Below, piece after piece: positions 991 through 22,446 of a DNA stretch of 64,000 bases. Origin of the DNA: Flavobacteriales bacterium (GTDB lineage: Bacteria > Bacteroidota > Bacteroidia > Flavobacteriales_F > PHOS-HE28). The notes under the pieces were generated by a model. That model was not told the origin of the DNA and did no database searches. It was given only the letters and a program-made list of their open reading frames with translations. The number at the start of each line of letters is the position of its first letter. Positions within the stretch are counted from its first letter, which is position 1. The translations under genes and the position numbers were made by a program. The stretch covers positions 53,744-117,743 of the forward strand of contig JAEUSV010000120.1 in the NCBI GenBank assembly GCA_016788485.1, given 5' to 3'.

Positions 991-2034
991 ATGGCGCTCT
1001 CCTCCATCACCCGGTACAAGCTCCGCAAGGTGCTCAAGTACACCCTGGTCACGGTCGCCGTGGCCTGGGTGCTCACGCTGTTCAGCGGTGATGCGGTGCG
1101 CGGCTGGCTCGGCGCCTGGGCCTTGCTGGGCCTGTGGACCGGCGTGCTCGAGGAGTTCCTGTTCGGGCGTCGCTACCGGTCGCTGGCCGTTCCGCTGCAG
1201 TTCTTGGGCAAGGCGCTCGCGGTGAACGCGCTCACCATCGCCCTGGTGGCCCTTGCCTTCGCGTTCGATCGGGAGCAGAACCTGCCGCTGCGCTCCGAAG
1301 GTGCGTTCACCCCGTCGGAGATGCTCGCCATGTCTCAGTTCTACCGCTTGATCCTGCGGGTGGCGGTGGTCACCAGCGTGGCCATCCTCATCGTGCAGGT
1401 GGAGGAGCTCATCGGGCGCCGCCTCTTCCTGGGCATCGTGCTGGGGCGCTACGAGCGGCCGCTCGCCGAGCAACGCATCGTGCTGTCCATGGACCTGGTG
1501 GGAAGCACGGCCCTCGCGGAGCGCATGGGCGACCTGCGCTACTTCCGCTTCCTCAACACCACCTACTCGCTGATGACCGATGCCCTGCTCCGGAACGAGG
1601 CCGAGATCCACAAGTACGTGGGCGACGAGGTGATCTTCACCTGGCCGATGGAAGTGGGCTTGTCGCAGGGCAACTGCCTCGACCTCTATTTCGACATCAC
1701 CGAACGCATCGCCGCCCATGCGGAGGAGCTCCAGCAGGAGTTCGGTGCGGTGCCCCAGTTCCGCGGTGCCCTGCACGGTGGGCGCGTGATCGTGGCGCAG
1801 ATCGGCCACATCAAGCGGGCCGTTGACTTCAACGGGGACGTGATGAACAGCGTGTCGCGGATGCTCGGCGTGTGCAAGGACCTGAAGGAGGACCTGGTGG
1901 TGAGCGCCGAGATGTACGCCCGGTTCACCGCCTCGCGCGAGCGTTTCCGATTCGGGGCCGAGCGTACCATGCCCGTGAAAGGCCGCAAGCGCGAGGTGCG
2001 TGTGCACAGCGTGGAGCGCGTGGCCAAGGCCTGA
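991..2034 (+). CDS. membrane-anchored class III adenylate/guanylate cyclase
   Basis: The 347-aa ORF has an N-terminal hydrophobic multi-TM region followed by a cyclase homology domain. The domain is recognisable by SMDLVGSTALAE...YVGDEVIFTWP...GALHGGRVIVAQIG...NGDVMNSVSRM. Confidence 0.75.
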   Translation: MALSSITRYKLRKVLKYTLVTVAVAWVLTLFSGDAVRGWLGAWALLGLWTGVLEEFLFGRRYRSLAVPLQFLGKALAVNALTIALVALAFAFDREQNLPLRSEGAFTPSEMLAMSQFYRLILRVAVVTSVAILIVQVEELIGRRLFLGIVLGRYERPLAEQRIVLSMDLVGSTALAERMGDLRYFRFLNTTYSLMTDALLRNEAEIHKYVGDEVIFTWPMEVGLSQGNCLDLYFDITERIAAHAEELQQEFGAVPQFRGALHGGRVIVAQIGHIKRAVDFNGDVMNSVSRMLGVCKDLKEDLVVSAEMYARFTASRERFRFGAERTMPVKGRKREVRVHSVERVAKA

Positions 2035-2049: not shown

Positions 2050-3141
2050 ATGCACCGGTCATTGGCCGCATCGACGCTGCTCATCGCCCTCTCGGCGGCA
2101 GGTCAGGCGCCGGCGCCGTTCACCACCCCCGGCGGGCGCCTCATGCTCTTCGATGCGGGACGCTTCCTCGAGGTGGATCCGCGTGAGCCCCGGCAGCTGG
2201 CCATGGCCCGTGACGTGGTGCTCTTCGTTGACCCCGCGAACGTGCTGCACGCCGCGGAGCAGGGACAGGTGCGGCACCTGGACGAGGGGCCTGCGATCCA
2301 GCTGGTGGGCCATGGCGATGCGCAGGCCTGGCGGAATGAAGGCGCATTGAAGGTGCTCCACAGGGGCGAGCCTGTCACACTGACGTCGGACGTGGGCGCC
2401 ATGACGGTGACGGACAGCATGCTCGCGTTCCACGACCGGACTGATAGGGCTTTGCGTGCATGGTGGAAGGACCGGTTGATGGATGTGACCGGGCTCGACA
2501 GCACCGGAGCGAAGGCACCATGGGCACAGGGGAGCAACACCTTGGTGTACCACGACCCCGCTGCGGAGAAGGTCATCCTCTTCCATCGGGGCATGAAGCA
2601 GGTGCTCTTCGACAGCACCAACATGGCGCTCGCAGAGCCCGGCGGCGACCTGGTGGCCTATTGGGACGATCGCCGCGCAACGTTCCGCGTGTGGGACCGG
2701 GGGCAACGGCACGACCTTGAGCCCATGCGCCCGCAGGCCTTCAAGGCCGGCGATGGACTGGTGGCCTATGTCTCGGCGGGCGGTTCGCTGAAAGTGTACC
2801 GGGATGGTCGGGTACTACCGCTCCTCGATCATGCACCGACCGAGCATTGGGTGCGCGACAGCCTGCTCGTGGTGGTGGATGCCGGAAGGACCTGGGTGGA
2901 GCACGATGGACGGCTGGTGGAGCTCGAACCTTACGTGCCGGAGCGTTGGGAGGTGCGCGATGGCACCATCACCTACCTCGACCTGGACAGAGGGGTCCGT
3001 CAATGGCGTGCCGGCGAGCGGACCGAGCTCGCCAAGGGCATGGCCACCGACCGGTTCGAGGTGTGGGGCGAGGTGGTCGTGTGGACCGGCACCGATGGCG
3101 TGGTGCGCTGTTGGTGGCGCGGTCGTACCTACGAATTCTGA
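2050..3141 (+). CDS. secreted hypothetical protein with internal W/D/R-rich beta-hairpin-like repeats
   Basis: The 363-aa ORF begins with a signal peptide (MHRSLAASTLLIALSAAGQA). It contains repeated ~40-aa units such as GDLVAYWDDRRATFRVWDRG, GDGLVAYVSAGGSLKVYRDGRV and VWGEVVVWTGTDGVVRCWWRGR. It starts 16 nt after the upstream cyclase on the same strand. Confidence 0.55.
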   Translation: MHRSLAASTLLIALSAAGQAPAPFTTPGGRLMLFDAGRFLEVDPREPRQLAMARDVVLFVDPANVLHAAEQGQVRHLDEGPAIQLVGHGDAQAWRNEGALKVLHRGEPVTLTSDVGAMTVTDSMLAFHDRTDRALRAWWKDRLMDVTGLDSTGAKAPWAQGSNTLVYHDPAAEKVILFHRGMKQVLFDSTNMALAEPGGDLVAYWDDRRATFRVWDRGQRHDLEPMRPQAFKAGDGLVAYVSAGGSLKVYRDGRVLPLLDHAPTEHWVRDSLLVVVDAGRTWVEHDGRLVELEPYVPERWEVRDGTITYLDLDRGVRQWRAGERTELAKGMATDRFEVWGEVVVWTGTDGVVRCWWRGRTYEF

Positions 3142-4211
3142 GCGGCGCGGTCCTCGCCCTTGAGCCCGATCGTCCACAGGCTCACCTCGTTCCGTTTCCC
3201 TTTCAGCGGGATCTCGCCGATGTGGCGCGTGGTATACAGGTGCTCGGGCAGGCGCAGCAGGTCGAGTAGGTCCTTGCTCACCAGGTTGTCGACCCCGTGG
3301 TCGTTGCAGCTGTTCTGGATGCGGGCGGCGGTGTTCACCACGTCGCCGGAGAAGATGGTCTCCTTCTTCACCAGGCCCACTTCGCCCGTGGTGACCTCCC
3401 CATAATGGAATCCTGCCTTGAACTGGGGCACGAGGCCGTAGCGCTCCTGGTAGTAGGCCGCGCGCTGTCCGAGCTTGCGGCGGATGTCGAAGAAGCAGCG
3501 GATGCAGCGCTGCTGGCGGATCCCCTTGTGCAGCGGCCAGCTCACGCTCACCTCATCGCCCACGTACTGGTACACCTCACCCTCCGAGTACACCACCGGG
3601 TCGGTGATGTCGGAGACCACGTCGTTGAGCAGCTCGAAGTAGCGCACGTGCCCGATGCGTTCGGCGATGGTGGTGCTGGAGCGCATGTCGAGGAACATGA
3701 AGATGCGGAGCTCCTGGCGCGGCTTGTAGTAACGGCCCAGGAGGAAGCCCACGCCGCCGCTGCCGTACTGGTCGTTCAAACGCACCATCAGCATGGTGCC
3801 GCCCATCATCAGGGTGTAGTAGAGGAACTGCCCGAGCTGGGTGAGGGAGAAGGCGCGCTGCGCGATCCCCTGGGCCACATCGCCGCCGACGGAGAGCGCA
3901 GGGAGCACGGCGTGCGTGAAGACCACCACGGGAAGCACCAGGCCGGCCATGATGGCGAAGGCCTGCAGGAAGGGGAGGACCCGCAGTCGGTCGCGGAGCA
4001 GGAAGATGTAGATGCCACCGCCGAAAAGGCCACCGAAAAGCCCGCGCCAGAAGTACGCGTTCACCTCGTCCTCCAGGGGCAGGTGCAGCCCGTTCGCGGT
4101 GAGCACGTTGTTCTCCAGCACCGCGGCCACCAGCCCCGCGGCCACCCAGACGATGGTGATCCGCAGGGTGCGCCTGGCGCGCCTCCGGTACTTCTCGATG
4201 GGGGTGGGCAT
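3129..4211 (-). CDS. membrane-anchored class III adenylate/guanylate cyclase, paralog of 991-2034
   Basis: The 360-aa ORF has an N-terminal TM region followed by FLDMRSSTTIAE...YVGDEVSVSWP...GFHYGEVTTGEVG...SGDVVNTAARI. It is about 35-40% identical to the first cyclase by eye. It converges on the 2050-3141 gene with a 13-nt overlap. Confidence 0.75.
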   Translation of the reverse strand: MPTPIEKYRRRARRTLRITIVWVAAGLVAAVLENNVLTANGLHLPLEDEVNAYFWRGLFGGLFGGGIYIFLLRDRLRVLPFLQAFAIMAGLVLPVVVFTHAVLPALSVGGDVAQGIAQRAFSLTQLGQFLYYTLMMGGTMLMVRLNDQYGSGGVGFLLGRYYKPRQELRIFMFLDMRSSTTIAERIGHVRYFELLNDVVSDITDPVVYSEGEVYQYVGDEVSVSWPLHKGIRQQRCIRCFFDIRRKLGQRAAYYQERYGLVPQFKAGFHYGEVTTGEVGLVKKETIFSGDVVNTAARIQNSCNDHGVDNLVSKDLLDLLRLPEHLYTTRHIGEIPLKGKRNEVSLWTIGLKGEDRAAQNS

Positions 4212-4235: not shown

Positions 4236-4589
4236 TCAGGCGGCACTTCCCCGGCCGCGGCGCGGACGCACGATGCCGTAGTACCAGGCCACGCAGCCCA
4301 GCCCCAACGCGAAGAAGACCGTGGCCAGCGGCCGTGTGGTGTCGTTGGCGAAGAACTCGCCCAGCATCCAGGTGGAGTTGGCCAGGATCCAGAACACCAC
4401 GGCCAGGCTGTGCAGCAGCTCGCCGATCTCGTCGCGGCTGCGCCAGGCGATCCAGATGGCCATGAGCACCGTGGGCACGATGAGCAGGGTGCCCAACAGG
4501 CGCAGGTCCTGCACCCAGCACAGGTCCTTGAAGAGCCAGAGCACGATGTGGAAGTTCTCGGTCGCGCGAAGGGAGGGGATCCGGGTCAT
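4236..4589 (-). CDS. small polytopic membrane protein, probably co-transcribed with the downstream cyclase
   Basis: The 117-aa ORF has three to four hydrophobic segments. It lies on the same strand as the cyclase, 25 nt upstream of its start. Confidence 0.45.
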   Translation of the reverse strand: MTRIPSLRATENFHIVLWLFKDLCWVQDLRLLGTLLIVPTVLMAIWIAWRSRDEIGELLHSLAVVFWILANSTWMLGEFFANDTTRPLATVFFALGLGCVAWYYGIVRPRRGRGSAA

Positions 4590-4650
4590 GCGTCGTCGGT
4601 TCGGTGCGAAGGTCGCACGGCGCGGGCCACTCTTTCACGAACTTTGGCGT

Positions 4651-5283
4651 ATGCGCTCCGCGCTGCGCCCCCTGCTCCTCGCCGCCCTGGCCTTCCTCCT
4701 GCATGCGGCAGTGCAGGGACAGAAGGTGCCGCAACGGTTCTATGTGAAACTGAGCGGGGTGGTCACCGATCACTTCTCCGGCGATCCGATCAAGGGGGCG
4801 CTCGTGCGCCTGCTCAAGGCGGGGAAGGTGGAGGCGGAAGTGGTGACACGCGGTGATGGACGATACAGCCTTGAGCTCGACCGCGGATGGCGCTATTCAG
4901 TGTGGTATAGCGCCGAAGGCCTGGTCACCAAGCACGTGAACGTCGACACGGAGGAGGTGCCACCCTATCCGGATGTCCCGTTCTACGAGATGGACGTGCA
5001 GATCGCCCTGTTCCCATGGATCGAGGGTTTCGACTTCAGCCCGTTCGACCAGCCCCTGGGCGAGGCCTCGTACAAGCAGAGCGTGCGCAACCTGAGCTGG
5101 GATGTGGAGTACACCGAGCAGCTGCGCCCCAAGCTGGCGCATGCGATGGACGAGTACGAGAAGACCTACAGCGGCTACTACAAGCGGCGCGCAGGACGCA
5201 GACCGGTGAAGCGGACCTTCGAACGGCCCGATGCCGATACCACCAAGGCCGCGCCGCTGGACGCCCTTCCGCAGGAGCCATGA
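4651..5283 (+). CDS. secreted protein, paralog A of a four-member family: CarbopepD_reg-like beta-sandwich plus a conserved C-terminal SWD-Y module
   Basis: The start was re-picked at MRSALRPLLLAALAFLLHAAVQG, a signal peptide. The N-terminal part (VKLSGVVTD...GDPIKGALVRL...GRYSLELD) resembles a carboxypeptidase-regulatory-like domain. The C-terminal part carries GLVTKHVNVDT...LFP...FDFSPFDQPLGEASY...LSWDVEYTEQLRPKLAHAM. Confidence 0.65.
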   Translation: MRSALRPLLLAALAFLLHAAVQGQKVPQRFYVKLSGVVTDHFSGDPIKGALVRLLKAGKVEAEVVTRGDGRYSLELDRGWRYSVWYSAEGLVTKHVNVDTEEVPPYPDVPFYEMDVQIALFPWIEGFDFSPFDQPLGEASYKQSVRNLSWDVEYTEQLRPKLAHAMDEYEKTYSGYYKRRAGRRPVKRTFERPDADTTKAAPLDALPQEP

Positions 5284-5801
5284 GGATGCTGATCGTCCTG
5301 TTGGCCCTGTTGACGGCCCCTGTATCCTCCTTCGCCCAGGAGTTGAAGGATGATGTGCTCGTGTATGGCCAGGTGAAGCGGCTGGCCGATCGCGCTCCCC
5401 TGGAAGGCGCCTGGATCGTTGTCCAGCGCGATGGCGTGAAAGTGGCCCAGCTGGTGACCGACAGCGCGGGCCGGTACGAGATCCACCTGGACTATGACGC
5501 TGTGTACCGCCTCTACTACATGCAGGGCGGCATGGTCACGAAGAACGTCACCATCGACCTCAACGGGATCCCCGTTCCGGAGCGGTACGGCGGGCATGGC
5601 ATGAGCATCGACGTGACCCTGTTCCAGGCCTACCCCTGCCTCGACGTGAGCGCCCTGGAGGAGCCCATCGGCAAGGCGCGGTACGAGCCGGCCGACAGCA
5701 CGGTCAGCTGGGACATCGGCTACACGGAGTCGGTGCGGAGCAGGATCGCCGATGCCATGCGCCGGCACGACAGCCTGCGGGTGGCGGGCGGTTGCCCTTA
5801 G
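5280..5801 (+). CDS. secreted protein, paralog B of the same family
   Basis: Its ATG overlaps the TGA of paralog A in an ATGA arrangement. It has a signal peptide (MRMLIVLLALLTAPVSSFA) and the same module order (GMVTKNVTID...LFQAYPCLDVSALEEPIGKARY...VSWDIGYTESVRSRIADAM). Confidence 0.65.
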   Translation: MRMLIVLLALLTAPVSSFAQELKDDVLVYGQVKRLADRAPLEGAWIVVQRDGVKVAQLVTDSAGRYEIHLDYDAVYRLYYMQGGMVTKNVTIDLNGIPVPERYGGHGMSIDVTLFQAYPCLDVSALEEPIGKARYEPADSTVSWDIGYTESVRSRIADAMRRHDSLRVAGGCP

Positions 5802-6628
5802 TGCCGAAGGCGTTCCACGAGCCTCACGGCCTCGGCCGCCTCCTTCACATCGTGCACGCGCAGCACGGCCGCCCCGTTCAGCAGGGCGACGGTGTTGAGC
5901 ACGGTGGTGCCGTTGAGCGCATCGGCCGCGGTGATGCCGAGCACCTCGTTGATCATGCGCTTGCGCGAAACGCCCACCAGCACCGGCGCGCCCAGCGCTG
6001 CGATGCGCGGCAGCTCACTTAGCAGGGCGTAGTTGTGGTCCGTGGTCTTGCCGAAGCCGAAGCCCGGGTCGAGCCATACATCGGCGATGCCCGCCGCACG
6101 GCAGGCGTTGAGGCGTTCGCTGAGGAACCGGGTCACCTCCACGGCCACATCAGTGTAATGGGGCGCCTGTTGCATGGTCGCCGGCGTGCCCTGCATGTGC
6201 ATGGCGATGTACGGTACGCCGAGCGCCGCCACGGTGCGCAGCATGTCCGTGTCCAGGAGCCCCGCACCGATGTCGTTCACCAACCCCGCGCCGGCCTCCA
6301 CGGCCGCACGCGCCACCACCGCGCGCCAGGTGTCCACGCTGATGAGCGCGTCGGGAAAGCGGGCATGCACCGCAGCGATCACCGGTACCACGCGCCGCAG
6401 CTCTTCCGAGGCATCCACTTCGCTCGAGCCGGGGCGTGAACTGGCGCCGCCGATGTCGAGCACCGAGGCACCCCCGGCCAGCATTCGTTCCGCCAGCCGC
6501 AACGCGACGTCCACATCCACCCTGCTCGCGCCATGGAAGGAATCGGGTGTGGCGTTGAGGATGCCCATCACCAGCGGTGCATGCAGCTCCACGAGGCGGT
6601 CCTTGATGCGCAGGGTGAGGGTGTCCAT
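5798..6628 (-). CDS. folP: dihydropteroate synthase
   Basis: The 276-aa ORF has a full-length pterin-binding domain. It is recognisable by MGILNATPDSFHGASR...LDIGGASSRPG...GVPYIAMHMQGTP...DPGFGFGKT. Confidence 0.9.
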   Translation of the reverse strand: MDTLTLRIKDRLVELHAPLVMGILNATPDSFHGASRVDVDVALRLAERMLAGGASVLDIGGASSRPGSSEVDASEELRRVVPVIAAVHARFPDALISVDTWRAVVARAAVEAGAGLVNDIGAGLLDTDMLRTVAALGVPYIAMHMQGTPATMQQAPHYTDVAVEVTRFLSERLNACRAAGIADVWLDPGFGFGKTTDHNYALLSELPRIAALGAPVLVGVSRKRMINEVLGITAADALNGTTVLNTVALLNGAAVLRVHDVKEAAEAVRLVERLRH

Positions 6629-6652
6629 GGTGCGGAACGCGAAATTCGCACA

Positions 6653-8113
6653 ATGCTCCGGTTACGGCATTTCCTGTTCGCATTCCTGCTCGTGTACGCA
6701 TCCACATGTGAGGCGGTCGAGGTGGCGGGCTTTGTGCGTGATGGCATCACTGGTCTGCCACTGCGCGGTGCCATCGTTACGCTGGAGGGGGCAGGCACCG
6801 CTTCGAAGCAACAGGTCACACGCATCGACGGCTTCTATAGCTTCGACGTGCGGGCAGGTCAGCGCGTTGTGATCCGGTTCGCGGCCGACGGTCGGAACGG
6901 GCGTTATGTGGTCTTCGACGCCATGGCGGTCCCCAGGGAGTGGAACGATGCCCTCGTGAACGAACTGCACATTCGGCTGTTCCCGCCCATGGAAGGGGTG
7001 GATAGCGCAATCCTTGCAGCGCCTGCGGCCAGCTTCGCGTGGAACGAGGAGAAGGAGGCGGTACTGTGGGACACGGCTGGTGCCGATGCGCTCGCGGAGC
7101 GATGGAAGGCGATCGCGGAGGATCACCTTGCCCGGCATCCGGAGGACCGACCCACTACCGTGGAACGCTGTACGGCCGAAGTGTTCGATCGCATCGCCGA
7201 GGAGCGGTCCCATGCCAACAAGTGGCTCGTGGCAGCGGCGTTCGCGCTGGCCTGGGCGCTGTACGTGCTGCTCGACCGGCTGGTGCGCAAGCTGGCCATG
7301 CGGGCACGGCTTGCGGTCCTGGCGGCATTCCTGGCAGGTTCCATCGCGCTGATCATCGACCTGGCCTCCGTGGCCGGCCCCTTGCGTTTCCTCGCCTTCT
7401 TCGGCCTCCTGGCCGCGCTGGTCTCCGGGGGGCGGCTGGCGCTAGGTCTGCTATTGGGCACCGATGGAAGGACGGATCCGGATGTAGGTGCAGAGCTCCA
7501 CGACATGGAGGTGGCGATGCACGAGGAGGACATGCAGGAGGAGGAAGAGGACGTCGCGACCGACGCGGTCGATCACGCTTCACGGCCGGATGCACGCGCG
7601 CGGCTGCATGCCTGGGTGCCCCTGGGCGTTGCCTTGCTTGCCGGGTCGGCGCTGGTGGCCGAATGGTCGGTAGGCCTCGAGAACACCCTGCGTGTGTGGC
7701 GACTGGTGGGCGGTGGTGTGCTGCTTGGCCTGGCCATCGCGGCCCTTGTTGCCAGGGGCCGCACACCCGCGATGCTCCGCACGCGCCCCCAGGTCCTGTT
7801 CTGGAACGGCGGGGTCTGGTGGTTCGCCCTTCCCTTGCTGTGCGTGGCCGCCGCTTCGTTCGTCAACCGGTCCTTGCCGCAAGGCGAGGAGCATTGCGAC
7901 GTGTGGCCGGTGGTGGAGGTGTGGGATGGACGCAAGGGCATCCAGGTGCGCGTGGAGGTCGATGGCGAACGTGAACGTCTGGAGATGGACCGCGCGATCA
8001 AGGAGCAGCTCACGACGCTCGACAGCCTGCGATGCTGCCATCGGCGCGGTGCCCTGGGCCTCGACTTCGTCGAACGGATCGAGCCGGTGATCGCCGCCAG
8101 CGTTCCGCGTTGA
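6653..8113 (+). CDS. membrane protein whose N-terminus is paralog C of the CarbopepD_reg/SWD-Y family, followed by about 4 TM helices and a C-terminal Cys-containing domain
   Basis: The start was re-picked at MLRLRHFLFAFLLVYASTCEA. Residues ~20-160 align with paralogs A, B and D (GFVRDGITGLPLRGAIVTLEG...GFYSFDV...LFPPMEGVDSAILAAPAASFAWNEEKEAVLWDTAG). Several hydrophobic helices follow. The tail contains CDVWPVVEVWDGRKGIQVRVEVDGE and CCHRRG. Confidence 0.6.
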   Translation: MLRLRHFLFAFLLVYASTCEAVEVAGFVRDGITGLPLRGAIVTLEGAGTASKQQVTRIDGFYSFDVRAGQRVVIRFAADGRNGRYVVFDAMAVPREWNDALVNELHIRLFPPMEGVDSAILAAPAASFAWNEEKEAVLWDTAGADALAERWKAIAEDHLARHPEDRPTTVERCTAEVFDRIAEERSHANKWLVAAAFALAWALYVLLDRLVRKLAMRARLAVLAAFLAGSIALIIDLASVAGPLRFLAFFGLLAALVSGGRLALGLLLGTDGRTDPDVGAELHDMEVAMHEEDMQEEEEDVATDAVDHASRPDARARLHAWVPLGVALLAGSALVAEWSVGLENTLRVWRLVGGGVLLGLAIAALVARGRTPAMLRTRPQVLFWNGGVWWFALPLLCVAAASFVNRSLPQGEEHCDVWPVVEVWDGRKGIQVRVEVDGERERLEMDRAIKEQLTTLDSLRCCHRRGALGLDFVERIEPVIAASVPR

Positions 8114-8133
8114 GGTCGTTCCTTTGCGTTCGC

Positions 8134-8676
8134 ATGGAACGGACCCTGGAGCAATACGATGCAGTGATCGCCGAGTGCATGGCGCTCTTCTCCAAGAAGG
8201 CGCACGACTATGGCACGGCCTGGCGCATCCTGCGCGTACCCTCCCTCACGGACCAGATCCTCATCAAGGCCCAGCGCATCCGCACGCTGCAGACGGTGGG
8301 GGTGAGCAAGGTGGGCGAAGGGGTGCGTCCGGAGCTCATTGGCATCATCAACTACGCGGCCATGGCCCTTGTTCAGCTGGAACTGGGGGTGGTGGACGCG
8401 CCCGACCTCGATGCCACAGCCGCCTCGGAAAAGGTGCAGGCCGCCATGCAGCAGGCGCGCGACCTCATGCAGCGCAAGAACCACGACTACGGCGAGGCCT
8501 GGCGCAGCATGCGCGTGAGCTCGCTGGTGGACCTCATCCTCATGAAACTGCTGCGCATCAAGCAGATCGAGGACAACGCCGGCGCCACGCTGGTGAGCGA
8601 GGGCATCGATGCGAACTTCCTCGATATCGTGAACTACGGCGTGTTCGCGATGATACGCCTGGAGGAGGGGGCCTAG
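8134..8676 (+). CDS. DUF1599-family protein
   Basis: The start was re-picked at MERTLEQYD. The protein has two internal repeats of HDYG(T/E)AWR...SL(T/V)D(Q/L)IL(I/M)K..RI. From memory, DUF1599 is commonly found next to folP in Bacteroidota. Confidence 0.7.
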   Translation: MERTLEQYDAVIAECMALFSKKAHDYGTAWRILRVPSLTDQILIKAQRIRTLQTVGVSKVGEGVRPELIGIINYAAMALVQLELGVVDAPDLDATAASEKVQAAMQQARDLMQRKNHDYGEAWRSMRVSSLVDLILMKLLRIKQIEDNAGATLVSEGIDANFLDIVNYGVFAMIRLEEGA

Positions 8677-8680
8677 CGCC

Positions 8681-9205
8681 TTACTGTTCCAGCCACTTGA
8701 AGGAACCCAGGATCGCCTCTGCGATGTAGAGGGTGTCGTCCCAGGCATCGCGATGGGACGTGAACGTGACCAGATAGGCGCGACCACCACGCAGCCGCAC
8801 CTCCTGCTTGAAATGCAGCGGCAGGTCGTTCAAGGTGGCGGTGTATTCGAAGGTGTGGTATTCGCCGGTGCTGTTGCGTTGCGTGGCCGAGTGGATCAAT
8901 GCTCCTTTCACATCACGCACCTGTTGCTCGGTAAGGGCGATGTAGGCGGGCAGGTCCATGTCGCCGGTGGGCTGTACCAGCAGGTTCACATTCTCGCGGA
9001 ACACGTCCCCGCTGTCCAACGGGCTCAGGAAACCCACCACCATGCCCTTGTCGCGATCAACGTCCACCGTCCATGCTGTGGGATGGGAGAGGGCCACGCC
9101 TTCGCCCTTCCACGTGGTCCAGGCCGGGGCCTTGGTGGTGGTGTCCTGGGCTAGGCACACCAGGGTGAACAGGGAGACCGGAACGAGCAGAAGGCCGCGG
9201 AGCAT
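8681..9205 (-). CDS. secreted hypothetical protein
   Basis: The 174-aa ORF has a signal peptide (MLRGLLLVPVSLFTLVCLAQ). No recognisable catalytic motif was seen. Confidence 0.45.
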   Translation of the reverse strand: MLRGLLLVPVSLFTLVCLAQDTTTKAPAWTTWKGEGVALSHPTAWTVDVDRDKGMVVGFLSPLDSGDVFRENVNLLVQPTGDMDLPAYIALTEQQVRDVKGALIHSATQRNSTGEYHTFEYTATLNDLPLHFKQEVRLRGGRAYLVTFTSHRDAWDDTLYIAEAILGSFKWLEQ

Positions 9206-9343
9206 GACAGCAAGGTTGCTGCGAAGATGCGGAACCCGGAACGAAGCGGATAATGCTATTCACATCGACCTGTTGATCGATCGTCGCAGGAAAGCCCTCC
9301 GGACGCTTTGATCACGATCGGCGCGGGGATACGTTTGCCGCCG

Positions 9344-9889
9344 ATGCGAAAAGCCTTGATCGTCGCGGTGTTGGTCGGCCTGCAGCTGCCGGCGGCCGCG
9401 TTCAGCCTGAAGGTGAAGGGGGTGGTCACCGACTACCTCACCGGGCAGACCATGGAGCATGTGCTCGTGCGTGTGTACAAGGACGGGGCGAAGGTGTCCA
9501 CCGCGGAGACCGGTGCCATGGGCCACTACGCCGTGGAGTTGGAGAACAACCACGCATACGTGCTTCGCTTCAGCGGTCCCGGCCTTGTCACCAAGTGCTT
9601 CACCGTGGACACGCACGGCATGGAATGGGTGGGCGACGAACGCCGCAAGGAGCTGGAGGTGGAGATGACCATGCTGGAGCGCACCACGGCCATGGACCTC
9701 AGCCTCTTCGACATGCCCATGGGACGGGCCTCCTTCGAGCCGGCCACCGGGTTGGTGAGCTGGGATACCGATTACGACCGCACGCTGCGCCCCCAGGTGG
9801 AGGGCCTCATGAACGAGTATCAACGCCTGATGACCGCACAGGCGAGCGCCGCCGCCCCCCGCGAAGAGCGGACTGACGAACGACGCTGA
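9344..9889 (+). CDS. secreted protein, paralog D of the CarbopepD_reg/SWD-Y family
   Basis: The start was re-picked at MRKALIVAVLVGLQLPAAA. It has the same module order as A and B (VKGVVTDYLTGQTMEHVLVRVYKDG...GLVTKCFTVDT...LSLFDMPMGRASFEPATGLVSWDTDYDRTLRPQVEGLM). Confidence 0.6.
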   Translation: MRKALIVAVLVGLQLPAAAFSLKVKGVVTDYLTGQTMEHVLVRVYKDGAKVSTAETGAMGHYAVELENNHAYVLRFSGPGLVTKCFTVDTHGMEWVGDERRKELEVEMTMLERTTAMDLSLFDMPMGRASFEPATGLVSWDTDYDRTLRPQVEGLMNEYQRLMTAQASAAAPREERTDERR

Positions 9890-9958: not shown

Positions 9959-11995
9959 CTACCGGAGCACGGCCGCACGCCCCACCAAGCGCCGCCCTTC
10001 GCTGAGCGCTTCAATGGTCAGCACACCGGATGCGGCACCGCGGATCGGCAGCGTGGACCGATCACCTGTGGTACGGGAGGCGGCCAGCAGCGCGCCCTGC
10101 GCATCGAACACGCGGATCTCCCAAGGACCAACACCGGGCATCGCCACCACCAGCTGGTCGCCGATCACCGCACAGGTGAGCCCGTTCGTGGCAGCAAGGG
10201 AAGTGATGCCCGTGGCCGGGAACACATCCACCTGCTGCCACACCGTGTCCGTACCGCAGTCGTTGCCCACGATCAGGCCCACCACATAGTGGCCGTACTC
10301 GCCGAAGTCATGCGTGATCGAGTCGCCCGAGGCGATGGAGCTGCCGAGCAGCCAGGTGTTCCAGTCGGCGTTGGCGCTCGTATCGGTCAGCACCACCGTG
10401 GTGGAACCCGGCGGGTCCTGTGCCCAGGTGAAGTCCGCCACCGGCGGATCGCCGCCCCCGATGTGGATGGTGTCCGTGCGGGTGCAGCAGGCCACGGTCA
10501 CCTGCACCCAGTAGGTGCCGGTGTCGCCCAGCAGGGTCTGGCCGGTGCTGCCATCGCTCCACAGGTAGCTGGCGCCCGGGTTGCCGGCGTCGAGCAGCAC
10601 CGGGTCGCAGCTAGTGGTGTCGGGGCCCAGGTCGACCGCGGTGGCACAAGCATCCGTGATGCCGGAAACGCCAGCGCCCGCAGTGGGCAGCAGCGTGAAG
10701 CTGACCGGCGTGTAGATGGGTTGCATGTCGTAGGCCACAGGCGGAACGCTTGCTGTGGTGACGACCAGGTCGTTGGTCGCATGGCACGGAATGGTACCGT
10801 CGGCCTCGGCCCGCAGGAGCACCAGGTCCTCGTTGTTGAGGCTGTCCAGCGATCGTCCGGCCAGCCAGAAGTGGTCGTCCTCCAACACCAGGTTGGGAGC
10901 GATGCTGATCGGGCCTTCCTCGTTGGACAGTGCGCCATAGCTGCGGGCCCAGAGCAGCGTGCCCCCGCGGGACACCTCCATGGCGAAGAGGCCGCGATCA
11001 CCGCCGCCGATGGTGGCGCCCACCAGCAGGTAGCCCTGTGCCGTGGCCGCCACCGTGGTGGTCATCTCGATGTTGGATCCGGCGATATCGTACATACGGG
11101 CCCAGGCGATGGTGCCATTGCTGTCCAGTCGTGCCAGGCCGGCCCTGTAGTTGACGCTGCCCCCGCTCGGGTTCCCGAAGAACGACAGGGTGAGCGAGTC
11201 GTCATGGGCGATGACGTCGCTGCCGTACATGTTGGCCGCCACGTTGTTCGAGAAGAAGAGGTACTTCGACCAGAGGTGCGAGCCCAGCATGTCGTAGTGC
11301 GCGAGGGCCACCCGGCAGGTGCTCACCGAACTTCCGTCCGTGTACAGATAGCCCGTGGCATAATGACCGTTGCCGAGCGTGGTGGCCCCGCCGAGGTCAT
11401 CGATGTAGGGCAGGGGGGTGTATTGGTTGATCTTGGGGGAGAGCCACAGGATGTCGCCGGTGAGCGGATCGATCCGGGCGGTGAGCAGATCCGCCCACGT
11501 GCTGTTGCCCAGCGGGTAGGCACCACCGAACAGCAGGTACTCACCGTTCGGCAGCGGGATGATCCTTCGGGCGAAGAGCGGTTCGGTGTGGTCGGTCATC
11601 CGCAGCCATACCAGGTTGCCGTTCAGGTCCAGCTTGAAGTGGAACGCATCGTCGTACCGGTGCGGCGTCACGTAGGTGATGCCGCTGCCGCAGCCGATGA
11701 GGTGACCGTCGGTGGTGGTGGTGAGGTGCCATACGATCGCCTCCAGGTTGCCCGGCTTGAAGGCCCGGGTCCAGAGCACCTGCCCCAAGGTGTCGATGCG
11801 TTGCACGAAGGCACTGTCGCCGAGGGTTCCACCAATGAAGAGTTCTCCACCCGCCGCGCGGTGCATGGCGTGGCCGCGTTCCAGGCGTCCGGGATCGCCG
11901 ATCTGCCGATAGAACGATTGGGCGTTCGCGCCCCAGGTGATCAGCAGGGTCGCGATGCCGCAGAGGTTCCTGATAATGTCCATCCGTTCGATCAT
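9959..11995 (-). CDS. T9SS-sorted secreted protein: beta-propeller-like LW repeats, a PKD-like domain and a Por-type C-terminal sorting domain
   Basis: The 678-aa ORF starts with a signal peptide. It has six or more ~45-aa repeats ending in (V/I)LW(T/S/A)R (GQVLWTRAF, GNLVWLRMT, GTIAWARMY, GTLLWARSY). A PKD-like segment follows (FTWAQDPPGSTTVVLTDTS...GEYGHYVVGLIVGNDCGTDTV). The C-terminal ~80 aa (LVVAMPGVGPWEIRVFDAQGALL...GVLTIEA...) resemble a T9SS C-terminal domain. Confidence 0.7.
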   Translation of the reverse strand: MIERMDIIRNLCGIATLLITWGANAQSFYRQIGDPGRLERGHAMHRAAGGELFIGGTLGDSAFVQRIDTLGQVLWTRAFKPGNLEAIVWHLTTTTDGHLIGCGSGITYVTPHRYDDAFHFKLDLNGNLVWLRMTDHTEPLFARRIIPLPNGEYLLFGGAYPLGNSTWADLLTARIDPLTGDILWLSPKINQYTPLPYIDDLGGATTLGNGHYATGYLYTDGSSVSTCRVALAHYDMLGSHLWSKYLFFSNNVAANMYGSDVIAHDDSLTLSFFGNPSGGSVNYRAGLARLDSNGTIAWARMYDIAGSNIEMTTTVAATAQGYLLVGATIGGGDRGLFAMEVSRGGTLLWARSYGALSNEEGPISIAPNLVLEDDHFWLAGRSLDSLNNEDLVLLRAEADGTIPCHATNDLVVTTASVPPVAYDMQPIYTPVSFTLLPTAGAGVSGITDACATAVDLGPDTTSCDPVLLDAGNPGASYLWSDGSTGQTLLGDTGTYWVQVTVACCTRTDTIHIGGGDPPVADFTWAQDPPGSTTVVLTDTSANADWNTWLLGSSIASGDSITHDFGEYGHYVVGLIVGNDCGTDTVWQQVDVFPATGITSLAATNGLTCAVIGDQLVVAMPGVGPWEIRVFDAQGALLAASRTTGDRSTLPIRGAASGVLTIEALSEGRRLVGRAAVLR
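10215..10700. repeat. Near-identical ~480-bp block (copy 1) shared between the two tandem T9SS cargo genes
   Basis: Reading the two stretches side by side gives roughly 90+% nucleotide identity against 12255-12740. The rest of the two genes is only ~50-60% identical at protein level. Coordinates are approximate. Confidence 0.6.
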
Positions 11996-11998
11996 GGT

Positions 11999-14014
11999 TC
12001 AGGGACGGTGATAGGTGCGACCCACAGCGATGCCTTGGCCGTTGCTGGCCACCAGGAAGTAGATACCGGCGGCGTGATCGGCCATTGGTACATGCGCTCG
12101 ACCGTTGCTTCCGGTGTGCCGCTGCACGAGCAGGCCATTGCCGTTGTACACGTCAAGATGCCATGTGCCCTGGCCCGGCAACATCACCAGGATGCCCCCG
12201 GCCTCAGGGATGCAGGTGAGCCGGTGCCCCATCACCTGCGGAACACCCATGGCCGGGAACACGTCCACCTGCTGCCACACCGTGTCGGTTCCGCAGTCGT
12301 TGCCGACGATCAGGCCCACCACATAGTGTCCGTACTCGCCGAAGTCGTACGCAAGGGAGTCGGCCGAGGCGATGGAGCTTCCCAGCAGCCAGGTGTTCCA
12401 GTTGGCGTTGGCGCTGGTATCGGTCAGTGCCACCGTGGTGGATCCCGGCGGGTCCTGCGTCCAGGTGAAGCCCGCCACCGGTGGATCGCCGCCGCCGATG
12501 TGGATGGTGTCCGTGCGCGTGCAGCAGTCCACGGTCACCTGCACCCAGTAGGTGCCGGTGTCGGCCTGAAGTGTCTGGCCGGTGCTGCCATCGCTCCACA
12601 GGTAGCTGGCGCCCGGGTTGCCGGCGTCGAGCAGCAGCGGGTCGCAGCTGGTGGTGTCGGGGCCCAGGTCGACCGTTACGGCAGCGCAGGCCTCGGTGAT
12701 GCTGGAACCGGCCGAAGGCTGGGTGCTGCCCAGTGCGATGGTCAAGGGCGATGTGGACCAGGTGGAGGGGTAGGAGGTGGTGGGCAGCACAGTGGTGTTG
12801 AACGGGCTCAACGGCGTGGCGGCACAGCCTATGGTGCCGTCCGGCGCCAGCCGGATGAGGAGCTCGTTCTCGTCGTTCGTGTACTTGCGGCGGCCCACCA
12901 TCATCAGCTCATTGCCGTCGATGAGCATGTTGGGCGCATAATGGTAGGCCAGACCTTCCTCCACGATGTTGTTCCCATACGAGCGCGCCCACAGGAGCGT
13001 GCCTTCGCGCGACACCTCCAGCAGAAAGAAGTCCTTAGGCCCGGTATCGAAGCCATAACCGCTAACCAGGTAGCCATTGGCCGTGGCCACGATGCTGGAG
13101 GCATACTCGGAGGTTTGGGTAGCGAAGTCGTATACCCGCCCCCAGGCCACGTTGCCCGCCGTGTCGAGGCGGGCCACCCCCACCCTGTACACGCCGCTCG
13201 ACCCGGTGATGTTGCCGAAGAAGGCGATGGTCAGCGAGTCGTCGTGCGCGATGATGTCCGATCCGTACATCCTGCGGTCGGCGCTGTTCGGGTAGAACAG
13301 GTAGCGGGTCCACGCGAGCGCGCCGAGGCTGTCGTACCGGCTCACGTAGACCCGGCAGGTCGAGACGGACGCGCCGTTGGTGAAGATGCGTCCGGTGGCG
13401 TAATGCGCACCGCTCAGTTCGGCCGTGCTCGCGATATCGTCGATGTAGGGCACTGGCGCATACAGGTCGTAGAGGTCGGAATGCGCGGTCACATCACCGG
13501 TGGCCGCATCGATCTGCGCGGTGAACACGTCGGCGAAGGTGGATGAGCCCAGGTCGTACACATCGGCGAAGAGCAGGTAGCTGTTGGCGGACATGGGCAC
13601 GATGCGTTTGGAGTACACGGGCCGCGTGTCGACCCACCCCCGTACCCACAGCACGTTGCCCAGCGGGTCGATCTTGAAGTGGAACCCGTCGCGCAGGGCC
13701 ACACTACCAGTGGACATGCCGTTGCCGCAGCCGATGAGGAACCCGTCCGGTGTGCTGTTCAGGTGCATCACCAGGCACGGGTAGGTGGTGCTCGGCTTGA
13801 AGGCCCTCGACCACAGCACCTCACCGTTGGCGCCGATGCGCTGCACCAGGGCGCTGTCGCCCACCGAGCCCCCCACATACAGCTCGCCGGTGGGCGTACG
13901 GTGGATGGTCTGTCCACGCTCGACCCGCCCGGGTGAGCCGTGCTCCAGGAGATAGGTCTGGGCTGGCGCCACCACGGGCACCAGCAGCAGCATGAGCGGA
14001 AGCAGGATCTTCAT
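11999..14014 (-). CDS. T9SS-sorted secreted protein, tandem paralog of 9959-11995
   Basis: The start was re-picked at MKILLPLMLLLVPVVAPAQ. It has the same architecture as its neighbour, and its PKD-like segment is about 92% identical to the neighbour's at nucleotide level. The C-terminus (ILVMLPGQGTWHLDVYNGNGLLV...GIYFLVA...) is T9SS-CTD-like. The two genes are separated by only 3 nt. Confidence 0.7.
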   Translation of the reverse strand: MKILLPLMLLLVPVVAPAQTYLLEHGSPGRVERGQTIHRTPTGELYVGGSVGDSALVQRIGANGEVLWSRAFKPSTTYPCLVMHLNSTPDGFLIGCGNGMSTGSVALRDGFHFKIDPLGNVLWVRGWVDTRPVYSKRIVPMSANSYLLFADVYDLGSSTFADVFTAQIDAATGDVTAHSDLYDLYAPVPYIDDIASTAELSGAHYATGRIFTNGASVSTCRVYVSRYDSLGALAWTRYLFYPNSADRRMYGSDIIAHDDSLTIAFFGNITGSSGVYRVGVARLDTAGNVAWGRVYDFATQTSEYASSIVATANGYLVSGYGFDTGPKDFFLLEVSREGTLLWARSYGNNIVEEGLAYHYAPNMLIDGNELMMVGRRKYTNDENELLIRLAPDGTIGCAATPLSPFNTTVLPTTSYPSTWSTSPLTIALGSTQPSAGSSITEACAAVTVDLGPDTTSCDPLLLDAGNPGASYLWSDGSTGQTLQADTGTYWVQVTVDCCTRTDTIHIGGGDPPVAGFTWTQDPPGSTTVALTDTSANANWNTWLLGSSIASADSLAYDFGEYGHYVVGLIVGNDCGTDTVWQQVDVFPAMGVPQVMGHRLTCIPEAGGILVMLPGQGTWHLDVYNGNGLLVQRHTGSNGRAHVPMADHAAGIYFLVASNGQGIAVGRTYHRP
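12255..12740. repeat. Near-identical ~480-bp block (copy 2), partner of 10215-10700
   Basis: See copy 1. The same block encodes CDP(V/L)LLDAGNPGASYLWSDGSTGQTL...TYWVQVTV...CCTRTDTIHIGGGDPPVA in both genes. Confidence 0.6.
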
Positions 14015-14141
14015 GATCGGGAAGGGGTGGACCACCAATTTACCGGTCGTCTTGTTGACAGGATGCACTTGTTAATTCCGTGCTAAAGACGGGGAAGGGG
14101 CCGAACGGCTGCCTCTATCTTCGGCCACCACCCTGCATACC

Positions 14142-17131: not shown

Positions 17132-17971
17132 ATGAACTACACCGAGGTCGACTTCCTCATCGCTCCGCTGGAGCCTTGGCGCGACATCCTCACCGCCGAG
17201 CTGGGCGAGCTGGGCTATGACAGCTTCGAGGAGACGCCCGGCGGACTGAAGGCCTACATCCTGAGCGAGCGCTTCGACCGGAAGGTGCTGCCCGAGCTGC
17301 TCACCCTGCGCGACCCGCATGCCTCGGTGAGCTACACGGTTCGTGCGGTGGAGCCGAGGAACTGGAACGCGGAGTGGGAGCGGAGCTTCACGCCGGTGGA
17401 GGTGGGGAAGGAGGTGCGCATCCGCGCCGAGTTCCATCCGTCGGTGCCGGGCTTCACGCACGAACTGGTCATCACACCGCGCATGGCCTTCGGCACGGGC
17501 CACCACGCCACCACGCGCATGATGGTGCAGGCCATGCTGGGCCTCGACCTGCACGGTCAGGCGGTGTGCGACCTGGGCTGCGGCACCGCGGTGCTGGCGG
17601 TGCTTGCCGAGAAGCGCGGGGCGAAGGAAGTGCTGGCCATCGACATCGACGCCCAGGCGGTCGACAACGCCCTGCACAACGTGGGGCTGAACGGTTGTCA
17701 CGCCATCACTGTGGAAAAGGGCACCGTGGCCGACCTGAGGGGCCGCAGGTACGGCACTATTTTGGCGAACATCGAGCGGAACACGCTGATGCGCGACATG
17801 GAGGCCATGCGCGACGCGCTGCTTCCCGGTGGTGCCTTGCTGCTCAGCGGTTTCGTGGTGGACGACCGCCACATGATGGCGCAGAGCGCGAAGCAGGCCG
17901 GGCTGCTCGTGGAGGAACGCTTGAACGAAGGCGAATGGGCCCTGATCGGATGCCGAAGACCACTTCCCTGA
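17132..17971 (+). CDS. prmA: ribosomal protein L11 methyltransferase
   Basis: The start was re-picked at MNYTEVDF. The C-terminal SAM-MTase motif is VCDLGCGTAVLAVLAEKRGAKEVLAIDID...LLLSGF. Confidence 0.85.
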   Translation: MNYTEVDFLIAPLEPWRDILTAELGELGYDSFEETPGGLKAYILSERFDRKVLPELLTLRDPHASVSYTVRAVEPRNWNAEWERSFTPVEVGKEVRIRAEFHPSVPGFTHELVITPRMAFGTGHHATTRMMVQAMLGLDLHGQAVCDLGCGTAVLAVLAEKRGAKEVLAIDIDAQAVDNALHNVGLNGCHAITVEKGTVADLRGRRYGTILANIERNTLMRDMEAMRDALLPGGALLLSGFVVDDRHMMAQSAKQAGLLVEERLNEGEWALIGCRRPLP

Positions 17972-20900
17972 TCCACCTGCTGCTGCGGGCCACCGCGGCG
18001 CTGCTGCTGTTCGCCTTCGCCGTGGCCGCGCAGGCGCAGACCAAGCCGTTCACCGACGACCAGGCCGTGTTCCTGGAGGAGGTCACCAACTTCCTCGTCG
18101 CCGCCGACAAGAAGGAGGGCAAGCCCTTCGTGGAGCAGGTGTTCGCCCCGGCCTGGAACGGCACCTACCTGTCGCCGGCGCAGCGCACCAAGGTCGTGGA
18201 GATGGCCAACTTCATGTTGAAGAAGCGCTACGAGGCCTTCCCGCATTTCCGCGACCTGCTTGCCGCCGTGGCCGCCTTCGCCAACAGCGGACGCCCCGCC
18301 GCCGAGTTCGACACCTGGATGCGCAGCCTCGACGCCATGGTGCAGAGCGGGCGCAAGAAGAACTTCACCGCCTTCGTCGAGATGTGCGCCGGTCTCTTCA
18401 AGGACAACACCCTGTTCAAGAGCCCCAGCACCCAGTGGCGCAGCAGCAGCGGCATCTTCACCTTCACCTACGACACCGTGCCCAAGGTGGTGTTCAACAA
18501 GCTCGATCTGGTGTGCCTGGCCAAGGGCGACAGCGCGGTGATCCGCAACACGAGCGGCACCTACTACCCGGTGGAGGAGATCTGGCGCGGCAAGGGGGGC
18601 CGGGTGGACTGGACGCGCGCCGGCCTGAAGCCCGAGGCCACCTTCGCCGAGTGGACGCACGACTATGCCATCAAGGTGAAGAGCGCGGCCTTCGAGATCG
18701 ATTCCGTCCAGTTCAACGACCCCTACTTCGAGAAGACGCTCTTCGGCAAGATCACCGACAAGGTGCTGGCCAACGTGGACGCCGATGAGGCGAGCTACCC
18801 GCGCTTCGAGAGCTACGACCGCCGCATGAAGATCCGCGACATCGTGGAGGGCATCGACTTCGAGGGCGGTTTCACCATGCAGGGCGCCAAGCTGCAGGGC
18901 TACGGCACCAAGGAGGAGCCCGCCTACCTCACCTTCTACCGCGACAAGCGCCCCTTCATCGTCACCCACGGCCTGCTCTACACCATCGAGCCCGAACGCG
19001 TGAGCAGCCAGGACGTCGCCGTCGCCATCCTGCTTGACAAGGACTCCATCTTCCACCCCAGCGTGAGCCTGCGTTTCCTGAAGGACAAGAAGCAGCTGAG
19101 CCTCATCAAGAAGGACGAGGGCCTGTCGAAGGGGCCGTTCTACGACACCTACCACAACCTCGACATGTACTTCGAGGTGCTCACGTGGAAGCAGGGCGAT
19201 CCCGTGGTCCAGCTCGGCAACCTGCAGGGCAGCTCGCAGACGCGCGCCTCGTTCGAGAGCTACAACTACTTCAAGGAGAAGCGCTACACCGCCATGCTCG
19301 GCGTGGACGCCGTGCATCCCCTGGTGCGGCTGCGCGACCACCAGAAGACCGCCGGCGACGTGTTCACCGCCACCGACTTCGCCGTGGCCACCCGCCTGCA
19401 GAAGCCCCAGGTGATCCCCATGCTCATCGACATGGCGAACAAGGGCTACATCGACTACGACCCCGAGGACGAGGTGGTGACCGTGAAGCCCCGCCTGCGC
19501 GAGCACGTGCTGGCCAGCGCCGGCAAGGTCGACTACGATGTGCTGCAGTTCAACAGCAACAGCGACGACGGGGTGAACGGCACCATCAACCTGCTCAACA
19601 ACGACCTCGCGCTCAAGGGTGTGGCCCGCATCATCCTCAGCGACTCGCAGGACGTGAAGATCTTCCCCAGCGAGAAGCTCGTGACCATCAAGAAGGACCG
19701 CGACTTCACCTTCGGCGGCGCGGTGCAGGCGGGCAAGCTCACCTTCCACGGCAAGGAGTACTACTTCCACTACCAGCCCTTCGTGATCGACCTGCTGAAC
19801 GTGGACTCGGTGAGCTTCATGGCCGACAGCTTCGACAAGGATGAGAACGGCCTGTCGCACCTGGTGCGGGTGAAGAACGTGCTGGAGAAGGTGAGCGGCA
19901 CCCTCGAGATCGACGCGCCCAGCAACAAGAGCGGGCTGCAGCAGGTGAAGGGGCCGGACGGCCGCATGACCGGCCGCTACCCCGAGTTCCCCAAGTTCAA
20001 CAGCGCCAAGGAGAGCTACGTGTTCTACGACCGCGGCGCGATCCAGAAGGGCGTGTACATCCGCGACAAGTTCTACTACCGCAGCGACCCCTTCCAGCTC
20101 GACAGCCTCGACGACTTCACCAACGACGGCCTCACCTTCACCGGTGTGCTCGTCTCCGCCGGCATCTTCCCCGACATCCGCGAGCCGCTGCGCTTGCAGA
20201 AGGACTACGCCCTCGGCTTCGTCCGGCCCACGGGCGCCGGCGGCCTGCCGTTGTACGGGCGCAAGGCCAACTTCACCAACACCATCAGCCTCAACTACAA
20301 GGGCCTGCAGGGCGATGGCGACATGACCTACCTCACCACCCAGGCCACCAGCACGGGCTTCGTGTTCTGCCCCGACAGCACCTTCGGCATCGTCGACACG
20401 CTCTTCAACCTCGCCGCCAAGGACCCCAAGCTCAACGTGCCCAACGTGAACGGCGCCAAGCTCTTCACCCGCCTGGAGCCGAAGAACGACGTGCTGCTGG
20501 CCGAGAAGCGCGAGCGTCCCATGACCATGTACGACGGGCAGGCCTTCCTGCACGGCCGCACCGAGCTCACCCCGAAGGGCATGACCGGCGCCGGGCTCGT
20601 GGACTTCACCAACGCCACGCTCGCCTCCAAGCTGTTCGACTTCCAGACGATGCGGATCCACGCCGACACCTCGGACTTCCGCCTCACCGAAGGGGACACC
20701 GCGAGCATCGCCTTCAAGACCGACAACGTGAACGCCACCGTGAAGCTCGACGAGCGGGTCGGCGAGTTCGTGAGCAACGGCACCGAGACCAAGGTGGAGT
20801 TCCCGGTGAACCAGTACATCTGCTTCATGGACCGCTTCAAGTGGTACATGGACCAGGGCGACCTGGAGCTGGAGAGCGACCGCACCGCCGCTGCGGCCAA

Positions 20901-22443: not shown

Positions 22444-22446
22444 ACC

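Follow-up and report, generated by a model that had tools for sequence, protein, structure and literature searches.

A paralogous family of predicted exported beta-sandwich proteins with a family-specific extension encoded near folP in Flavobacteriales

In a 64,000-nt stretch of DNA (the window) from an uncultured Flavobacteriales MAG, four genes were found to encode members of one unnamed protein family, here termed A, B, C and D, which by their sequences are old, true paralogs. We regard it as somewhat better than an even bet (probability about 0.55) that these proteins are paralogous Sec-exported heads with a binding or adaptor role in the cell envelope, that they arose by old local duplications, and that they are not tied to the neighbouring folP and DUF1599 genes. 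A, B, D and the N-terminus of C would represent a single Sec-exported domain, a sandwich with a family-specific extension, acting as a modular head directly after the signal peptide.

The four ORFs, A (4651..5283, 210 aa), B (5280..5801, 173 aa), C (6653..8113, 486 aa) and D (9344..9889, 181 aa), were confirmed as genes, all on the + strand. A and C are each identical (100%) to a database protein, P0001 (210 aa) and P0121 (486 aa), respectively, and homologs of 173 aa and 181 aa match B and D in length. The stop of A and the start of B share 4 nt, suggesting that the two genes are co-transcribed. The stop of B overlaps that of the convergent folP (5798..6628, - strand), a dihydropteroate synthase gene (TIGR01496, 308 bits) that belongs to the backbone of the locus and lies outside the family. 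The DUF1599 gene (8134..8676, + strand; PF07659, 6.6e-59), likewise a backbone gene and context only, starts 20 nt downstream of C on the same strand. It is followed by a gene for a PsbP-like exported protein (8681..9205, - strand; PF01789, 24 bits), also context, from which D is divergent.

Pairwise BLASTP linked A with D (2e-30), A with B (4e-24), B with D (7e-23), A with C (2e-16) and C with D (2e-5), at 22-33% identity; no significant direct match was obtained between B and C, which are connected via A and D. When the 89-aa C-module was compared by itself, matches of 1e-16 to 3e-18 were obtained among A, B and D and of 5e-5 between A and C, and the ~55-aa extension by itself gave 5e-14 to 1e-12 and 0.003, respectively, indicating that the likeness among the four proteins does not come from the generic sandwich only. 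Of 28 C-type proteins tested, 26 were matched (E 3e-10 to 4e-3) by an HMM built from A-, B- and D-type modules only. Neither the C protein of the window nor its identical entry P0121 was among those matched, and thus the assignment of the extension to this C rests on the A-C matches and on the fold. Identity is at least 38% within a type and at most 39% between types (medians 20-31%), and orthologs specific to each of the four proteins occur in other genomes (62-93% identity for the B type). The preliminary description of this locus, which had proposed four ORFs of one two-part architecture and old paralogs diverged to below 40% identity, is upheld by the all-against-all and isolated-module comparisons, and the shared motifs on which it had made the family depend are present in the alignments. 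A search for the module across the window returned zero copies besides A, B, C and D.

As had been proposed, the N-terminal part is a CarboxypepD_reg/transthyretin-like beta-sandwich of seven strands, supported by both Pfam and structural matches; in A it spans residues 31-120 (nt 4741-5010). The ~90-aa C-module that had been described behind it (residues 82-169 in B, nt 5523-5786; residues 78-166 in D, nt 9575-9841) is indeed conserved and unnamed, but it is not a separate domain; residues 88-120 of A, at its start, are strands 6-7 of the sandwich. According to the structure models, the part that is specific to the family, an extension packed onto the sandwich, amounts to only ~55 aa. This extension (residues 121-176 in A, nt 5011-5178) comprises a short helix (130-133), a beta-hairpin (138-150) ending in the invariant W-D of the SWD motif, and a long alpha-helix (152-173), and the helix/hairpin/helix arrangement after the sandwich is common to the AF2 models of A and C. 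In the alignments, two residues, D99 and W150 (A numbering), never vary, and each of D128, P135, G137 and D151 is shared by 90% or more of the sequences. Our guess is that D99, D128, W150 and D151 might either form or stabilise a binding site or coordinate a structural metal. Conservation is weak in the C-termini, which are short and charged; the tail of A beyond the extension is basic and modelled at low confidence.

Against PF13620 (CarboxypepD_reg), A scored 38.2, D 29.2, B 26.7 and C 20.8 bits (E of D, B and C, 1e-6 to 5e-4), only A lying above the gathering cut-off of 32.3 bits, and the seven-stranded sandwich of that family is present. Different from CarboxypepD_reg domains, which are peptidase-attached, the members of this family stand alone, in tandem, or fused to a 6-TM protein or TPR repeats, and they carry the SWD helix/hairpin/helix extension, which is absent from all structural neighbours; structural matches were confined to the sandwich and did not cover the extension. 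The 89-aa module found nothing below E 0.02 in Pfam (22 members) and nothing below E 0.88 among PDB sequences, in agreement with the preliminary description, in which it was not recognised as a named family, and scans of the whole proteins, rather than the isolated module, against NCBIfam, PHROGs and PADLOC returned nothing relevant. No sequence match to PF00576 (transthyretin / 5-hydroxyisourate hydrolase) was found, and an HIUase-like enzymatic role was rejected on that ground. Kustc1130, the hydrazine dehydrogenase 'assembly factor' (PDB 6hif chain Y), is alike at the level of fold only; it has 86 aa, lacks the extension, and is unrelated in both lineage and context.

An exhaustive HMM search found the module in some 970 representative clusters (counted at 50% identity), comprising four orthologous subtypes. 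All sampled members with a named source are from Flavobacteriales, and many of the carriers are wastewater and freshwater MAGs. The module lies at residues ~85-175 in proteins of 170-220, 300-350, 455-495 and 1100-1770 aa, either by itself, in tandem, as part of the 6-TM protein C, or at the N-terminus of the longest members (1100-1770 aa), which carry TPR repeats. These TPR-fused members are encoded elsewhere in the genome, and other members also occur in unrelated contexts. The variety of architectures points to a reusable binding head. We infer that the head is not catalytic and that its role in the cell envelope is that of a binding or adaptor module, whose ligand could be a partner protein or an envelope glycan; it would be free in A, B and D, repeated in the tandem proteins, tethered to the inner membrane via C, or placed N-terminally on very large TPR scaffolds.

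Every type begins with an N-terminal K/R followed by a hydrophobic run, and the Sec signal peptides predicted for A, B and D are in line with their earlier description as small signal-peptide proteins. In A, the signal peptide covers approximately residues 1-22, and the residue that follows the predicted cleavage site is Q. An [ASG]-Q pair occurs at this site in 92 of 108 A-type and all 8 B-type proteins, consistent with the Bacteroidetes Q-rule for signal peptidase I substrates (PMC5837995). A lipobox is not conserved, Cys being found within the last 12 residues before the first strand in only 26/108 A-, 1/8 B-, 9/27 C- and 23/64 D-type proteins. The free copies A, B and D are probably periplasmic.

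In C, a signal peptide is followed by the sandwich and extension (residues 22-165, nt 6716-7147), and then by six predicted TM helices (AF2, pLDDT 79; hydropathy) within residues 189-405 (nt 7217-7867), interrupted by an acidic disordered loop (268-313). The fusion to a polytopic membrane part and the Cys-bearing tail noted in the preliminary description were recovered, with six helices instead of about four. The fused form is conserved, as its 30 matches are mostly full-length orthologs. The C-terminus is a folded, conserved beta-domain of ~70 aa (within residues 408-486, nt 7874-8110) that includes C415, C461 and C462. The six helices and the K/R-rich loops at 212-219 and 370-382 suggest, by the positive-inside rule, that both the N-domain and the C-terminal beta-domain of C are periplasmic. 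Conserved motifs in C are GPLRFLAF, GLENTL, ASFLNRSF and LDSLRCC, and the best-conserved residues of the membrane part (P243-R245, G341-L346, S402-R406 and C415) lie at the predicted periplasmic face. No known fold or family was found for the TM part or the tail.

Several other readings of these proteins were weighed. The closest solved relative by sequence is the SusC NTE (PF13715; PDB 8aa4, 9hfj), also a Bacteroidota domain that is exported across the inner membrane and stands directly after a signal peptide, and whose function is likewise unresolved (PMC7782687); a literature search for newer work on it found nothing. The head could be a SusC-NTE-like domain for periplasmic docking to an energising or signalling partner in the inner membrane, for instance a TonB-ExbBD-like system, in which case the free copies might modulate the contact and C might be the membrane partner. 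We consider this improbable, since the NTE lacks the extension, the likeness is restricted to the generic sandwich, PF13715 scores only 19-21 bits against a cut-off of 32.2, the family has no TonB box, plug or barrel (no Plug/TonB_dep_Rec matches), and the conserved locus contains no TonB, ExbB, ExbD or TBDT genes. That the proteins are instead cell-surface or secreted components (adhesins, S-layer-like proteins or matrix components) also seems a long shot, as a conserved lipobox and a T9SS C-terminal sorting domain are both absent (no Pfam or NCBIfam match of the Por_Secre_tail / TIGR04183 type at E <= 1), and C anchors the same domain through six TM helices to what is presumably the inner membrane. 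The invariant polar residues of C at the periplasmic ends of TM helices or loops (R245, E343/N344/T345, N405/R406 and C415), together with the conserved CC pair in its tail, would fit a periplasmic-face inner-membrane enzyme or transporter, for example for a lipid-linked substrate, with the soluble paralogs as substrate-binding accessories; for C, and by extension for the family, this is unlikely.

A functional coupling of A-D to folP/DUF1599, in which they might for instance be exported proteins that assist folate or nucleotide-modification metabolism, is suggested by the locus itself, in which C lies so close upstream of DUF1599, and by the gene order A-(B)-folP-(C)-DUF1599-(PsbP-like)-D, conserved across 80 species-level loci. 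These loci hold 1 to 4 family members each (5 counting weak extra copies), in the architectures AD (37), A (23), ACD (8), ABCD (3) and others. The D type is present in most of them, and the PsbP-like gene is syntenic with D in many, not all. As the survey was seeded with an A-type motif, the constant presence of A is circular. The neighbours also include two membrane cyclases and a small TM protein besides the PsbP-like protein. Against a coupling, the family is exported whereas folP and DUF1599 encode cytoplasmic proteins, copy number ranges from 1 to 5, and further members occur in unrelated contexts. Moreover, folP and DUF1599 are directly adjacent, without C, in most genomes (gap of 0-90 bp in most loci), and elsewhere the gap is filled by TPR proteins or unrelated proteins of 1100-1300 aa, so that no link to folate metabolism is indicated. 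Synteny in this single-order survey may simply be inherited, although taken by itself it is also compatible with a functional link to the neighbours. A literature search on DUF1599 together with folP found nothing. Overall, a coupling is highly improbable, and the family is probably independent of both genes: the interleaving that had been called unusual is a conserved feature of the lineage, but it seems to be positional and to have come about by chance through local gene duplication. Under the preferred account, the four copies would descend from old local duplications and have been kept adjacent in an insertion-tolerant locus.

Some homologs lie on phage-like contigs and carry an extra C-terminal domain. 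We speculate, with little expectation of being right, that the head is the recognition domain common to the parts of an envelope system specific to Flavobacteriales, in which A/B/D, C and the giant TPR scaffolds dock one ligand (peptidoglycan or an outer-membrane component), and that mobile, possibly phage, elements captured an A-type head with the extra domain to exploit or mask this ligand. A SPOR identity for the extra domain was not borne out (Pfam SPOR E 0.14, in one member only); its profile found no SPOR protein among PDB sequences, and hhalign against an FtsN SPOR sequence was negative. The contigs are possibly of phage origin; they gave no tblastn match among 50,697 GenBank phage records, no IMG/VR relative, only housekeeping-like PHROG matches, and no tRNAs.

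Taken as a whole, the finding is of a new family rather than a new kind of system, and it neither establishes a new mechanism nor resolves an open question. This unnamed family, whose fold is confidently modelled, whose boundaries are clear and which comprises four subtypes, is sufficiently defined to seed a Pfam/InterPro entry. It marks envelope proteins specific to abundant uncultured Flavobacteriales, and the partner of the putative binding head is open to experimental search.

Four open reading frames on the + strand, A (4651-5283), B (5280-5801), C (6653-8113) and D (9344-9889), were confirmed where the preliminary description had placed them, and its start codons gave protein lengths agreeing with database entries. 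A is identical to P0001 (210 aa, 100% identity), a protein from a Flavobacteriales MAG that NCBI annotates only as 'carboxypeptidase regulatory-like domain-containing protein', C equals the database entry P0121 (486 aa), and the homologs of B and D have 173 and 181 aa, respectively. Pairwise BLASTP linked A with D (2e-30), B (4e-24) and C (2e-16), and D with B (7e-23) and C (2e-5), the kinship of B and C being found only via A and D. The 89-aa C-terminal module alone gave 1e-16 to 3e-18 among A, B and D and 5e-5 between A and C, and its last ~55 aa alone gave 5e-14 to 1e-12 and 0.003, respectively. Since both stretches score by themselves, the likeness among A-D is more than that of a generic sandwich. 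The shared motifs described earlier were seen in two alignments of the family, and the window holds four copies of the module and no more. A profile made without C-type sequences matched 26 of 28 tested C-type proteins and did not pick up the window's C or the identical P0121, so that for this protein the extension is supported by the A-C matches and by the fold.

Pfam recognised a single family in these proteins, PF13620 (CarboxypepD_reg) at the N-terminus, with only A passing the gathering cut-off, and NCBIfam gave no match. The AlphaFold2 model of A, built on a 56-sequence alignment, was confident (pLDDT 90) and comprises a seven-stranded sandwich (residues 31-120), after which come a short helix (130-133), a hairpin formed by 138-142 and 147-150, and a long helix (152-173). 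The strand positions in this model indicate that the module is not the single unit it had been taken for: its first third or so (GxVTKxVxxD ... LF) forms sandwich strands 6 and 7, and the remaining ~55 aa are a family-specific extension, the hairpin of which terminates in an invariant W-D. The view that the module has no named family held, as its profile found no match in Pfam or among PDB sequences.

Over the shared domain of 222 family sequences, identity was at least 38% inside one type (medians 57-70%) and at most 39% across types (medians 20-31%), and the type assignment of every sequence was clear by 15 points or more. These values bear out the idea of old paralogs, and show the four types to be orthologous groups whose separation predates the divergence of the sampled species.

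With the module profile, exhaustive HMMER searching across 1.84 billion representative proteins matched 970 clusters at E <= 1e-3, and 251 at the stricter E <= 1e-10. The matches comprise single-module (170-220 aa), two-module (315-330 aa) and C-type (455-495 aa) architectures, and proteins of 1100-1770 aa with the module at residues ~85-175 followed by TPR repeats; one TPR-type member shares a MAG with the surveyed locus L007, at a separate locus. All source-named members are from Flavobacteriales, Vicingaceae among them, and 80 of 80 GTDB species loci belong to uncultured Flavobacteriales-type MAGs.

The membrane fusion in C is conserved, as shown by 30 matches, mostly full-length, with 38-89% identity. 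Instead of the ~4 transmembrane helices first proposed, the AlphaFold2 model (pLDDT 79) and hydropathy gave six (about 190-211, 216-237, 244-267, 318-340, 348-369 and 383-405), together with an acidic disordered loop (268-313) and a folded beta-domain (410-479) bearing conserved C415, C461 and C462. By the positive-inside rule, the K/R-rich loops at 212-219 and 370-382 would put both the N-terminal and the C-terminal domain on the periplasmic side. In the membrane part, the invariant residues (P243-L244-R245, G341-L342-x-N344-T345-L346, S402, N405 and R406) lie at the predicted periplasmic face. The TM part and the tail resemble no known family or fold searched.

In all four types an N-terminal K/R precedes a hydrophobic run. 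The predicted cleavage site reads [ASG]-Q in 92 of 108 A-type and 8 of 8 B-type proteins, a pattern that marks signal peptidase I substrates under the Bacteroidetes 'Q-rule' (PMC5837995).

The neighbourhood was surveyed by an ORF scan with the window's proteins in 80 GTDB species loci, three further loci and the window. The conserved order is cyclase(+), [10-blade propeller], cyclase(-), small TM protein(-), A(+), [B(+)], folP(-), [C(+)], DUF1599(+), [PsbP-like(-)], D(+), [weak extra copy], DoxX/MauE, tpiA, prmA. Family content was AD in 37 loci, A alone in 23, ACD in eight, and ABCD, ABD and ABDB in three each, the presence of A everywhere being circular because the locus scan was seeded on the A-type motif. 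In most loci folP and DUF1599 adjoin directly and divergently (gap 0-90 bp). The gap contains C in about 14 loci, a TPR protein in L001, L049 and L011, and elsewhere unrelated 1100-1300-aa proteins. Its occupant differs by species, and the gap looks like a hot-spot for insertions (L001, L011, L049, L053, L058, L061, L062 and L074). In our reading, the A-D arrangement arose when a gene for an exported protein was duplicated locally in an insertion-tolerant locus, and does not represent a functional operon that includes folP.

Upstream of A in the window, two polytopic class III adenylate/guanylate cyclase genes flank a 10-bladed beta-propeller gene (991-2034 (+), 2050-3141 (+) and 3129-4211 (-)), followed by a 117-aa TM protein gene (4236-4589 (-)) that diverges from A; most surveyed loci have this block in synteny with A. 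Two tandem paralogs (678 and 689 aa; 9959-11995 (-) and 11999-14068 (-)), inserted between D and the backbone genes DoxX/MauE-tpiA-prmA, have no Pfam match and are 53% identical overall; their near-identity over ~150 aa (about residues 455-595) suggests gene conversion. Two very long candidate ORFs come after prmA (17374-22443 (+), 1689 aa, without Pfam match; 22440-29336 (+), 2298 aa), with long ORFs present on the opposite strand too; L001 and L002 have called genes of about 1480-1500 aa at this position, with no Pfam match.

A (T/G)AnnTT(T/C)G motif stands 4-6 nt 5' of the ATG of A (GAACTTTG, 4637-4644), C (GAAATTCG, 6639-6646) and D (TACGTTTG, 9330-9337), the last being an exact TAnnTTTG. 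TAnnTTTG is the Bacteroidota -7 promoter box, and its exact form occurs 7 times in the window (3.1 expected). Provided that these motifs are -7 boxes, transcripts of the three genes would have little or no leader.

Two other loci (L085 8001-8909 and L088 8001-8999; proteins P0228 and P0402/P0264) encode A-type homologs that have a signal peptide and, at the C-terminus, an additional domain of ~90 aa (GLFFTVQVGxYS...RYTxGxF...DAFVxAY). Their contigs, gene-dense, ORFan-rich and up to 127 kb, also encode ClpP, RtcB, Macro, NT5C, a GlnRS-like synthetase, GatB_Yqey, TnpB and GIY-YIG; they look phage-like, but had no match in GenBank phages or IMG/VR. The searches made did not support a SPOR-like reading of the extra domain.

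The closest known counterparts are the carboxypeptidase D transthyretin-like domain, the N-terminal extension of SusC (PF13715) and the stand-alone Kustc1130 subunit (PDB 6hif chain Y). The family has the sandwich in common with all three, but differs from them in its extension and architectures. In membership tests, it fell outside transthyretin/HIUase, the SusC extension, T9SS cargo and lipoproteins, and we classify it as an unnamed, lineage-restricted domain family. A docking role like that of the SusC extension, the function of which is itself unresolved (PMC7782687), is a weaker reading. Coupling to folP and DUF1599 is also weaker, as the proteins of these two genes are cytoplasmic whereas the family is exported. 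The same grade applies to a surface protein; the family proteins lack a conserved lipobox, and Pfam and NCBIfam showed no T9SS C-terminal domain in them. The reading in which C is the core of an enzymatic or transport function is weaker as well.

The exported sandwich with its conserved extension serves as the N-terminal head of several architectures. The usual roles of the fold, the lack of an enzyme-family match, the fusions to TPR scaffolds and to a membrane anchor, and a handful of conserved residues argue, with a probability of about 0.55, for a non-catalytic binding or adaptor module of the envelope. These residues, D99, D128, W150 and D151 (A numbering), may form a small candidate binding or metal site.
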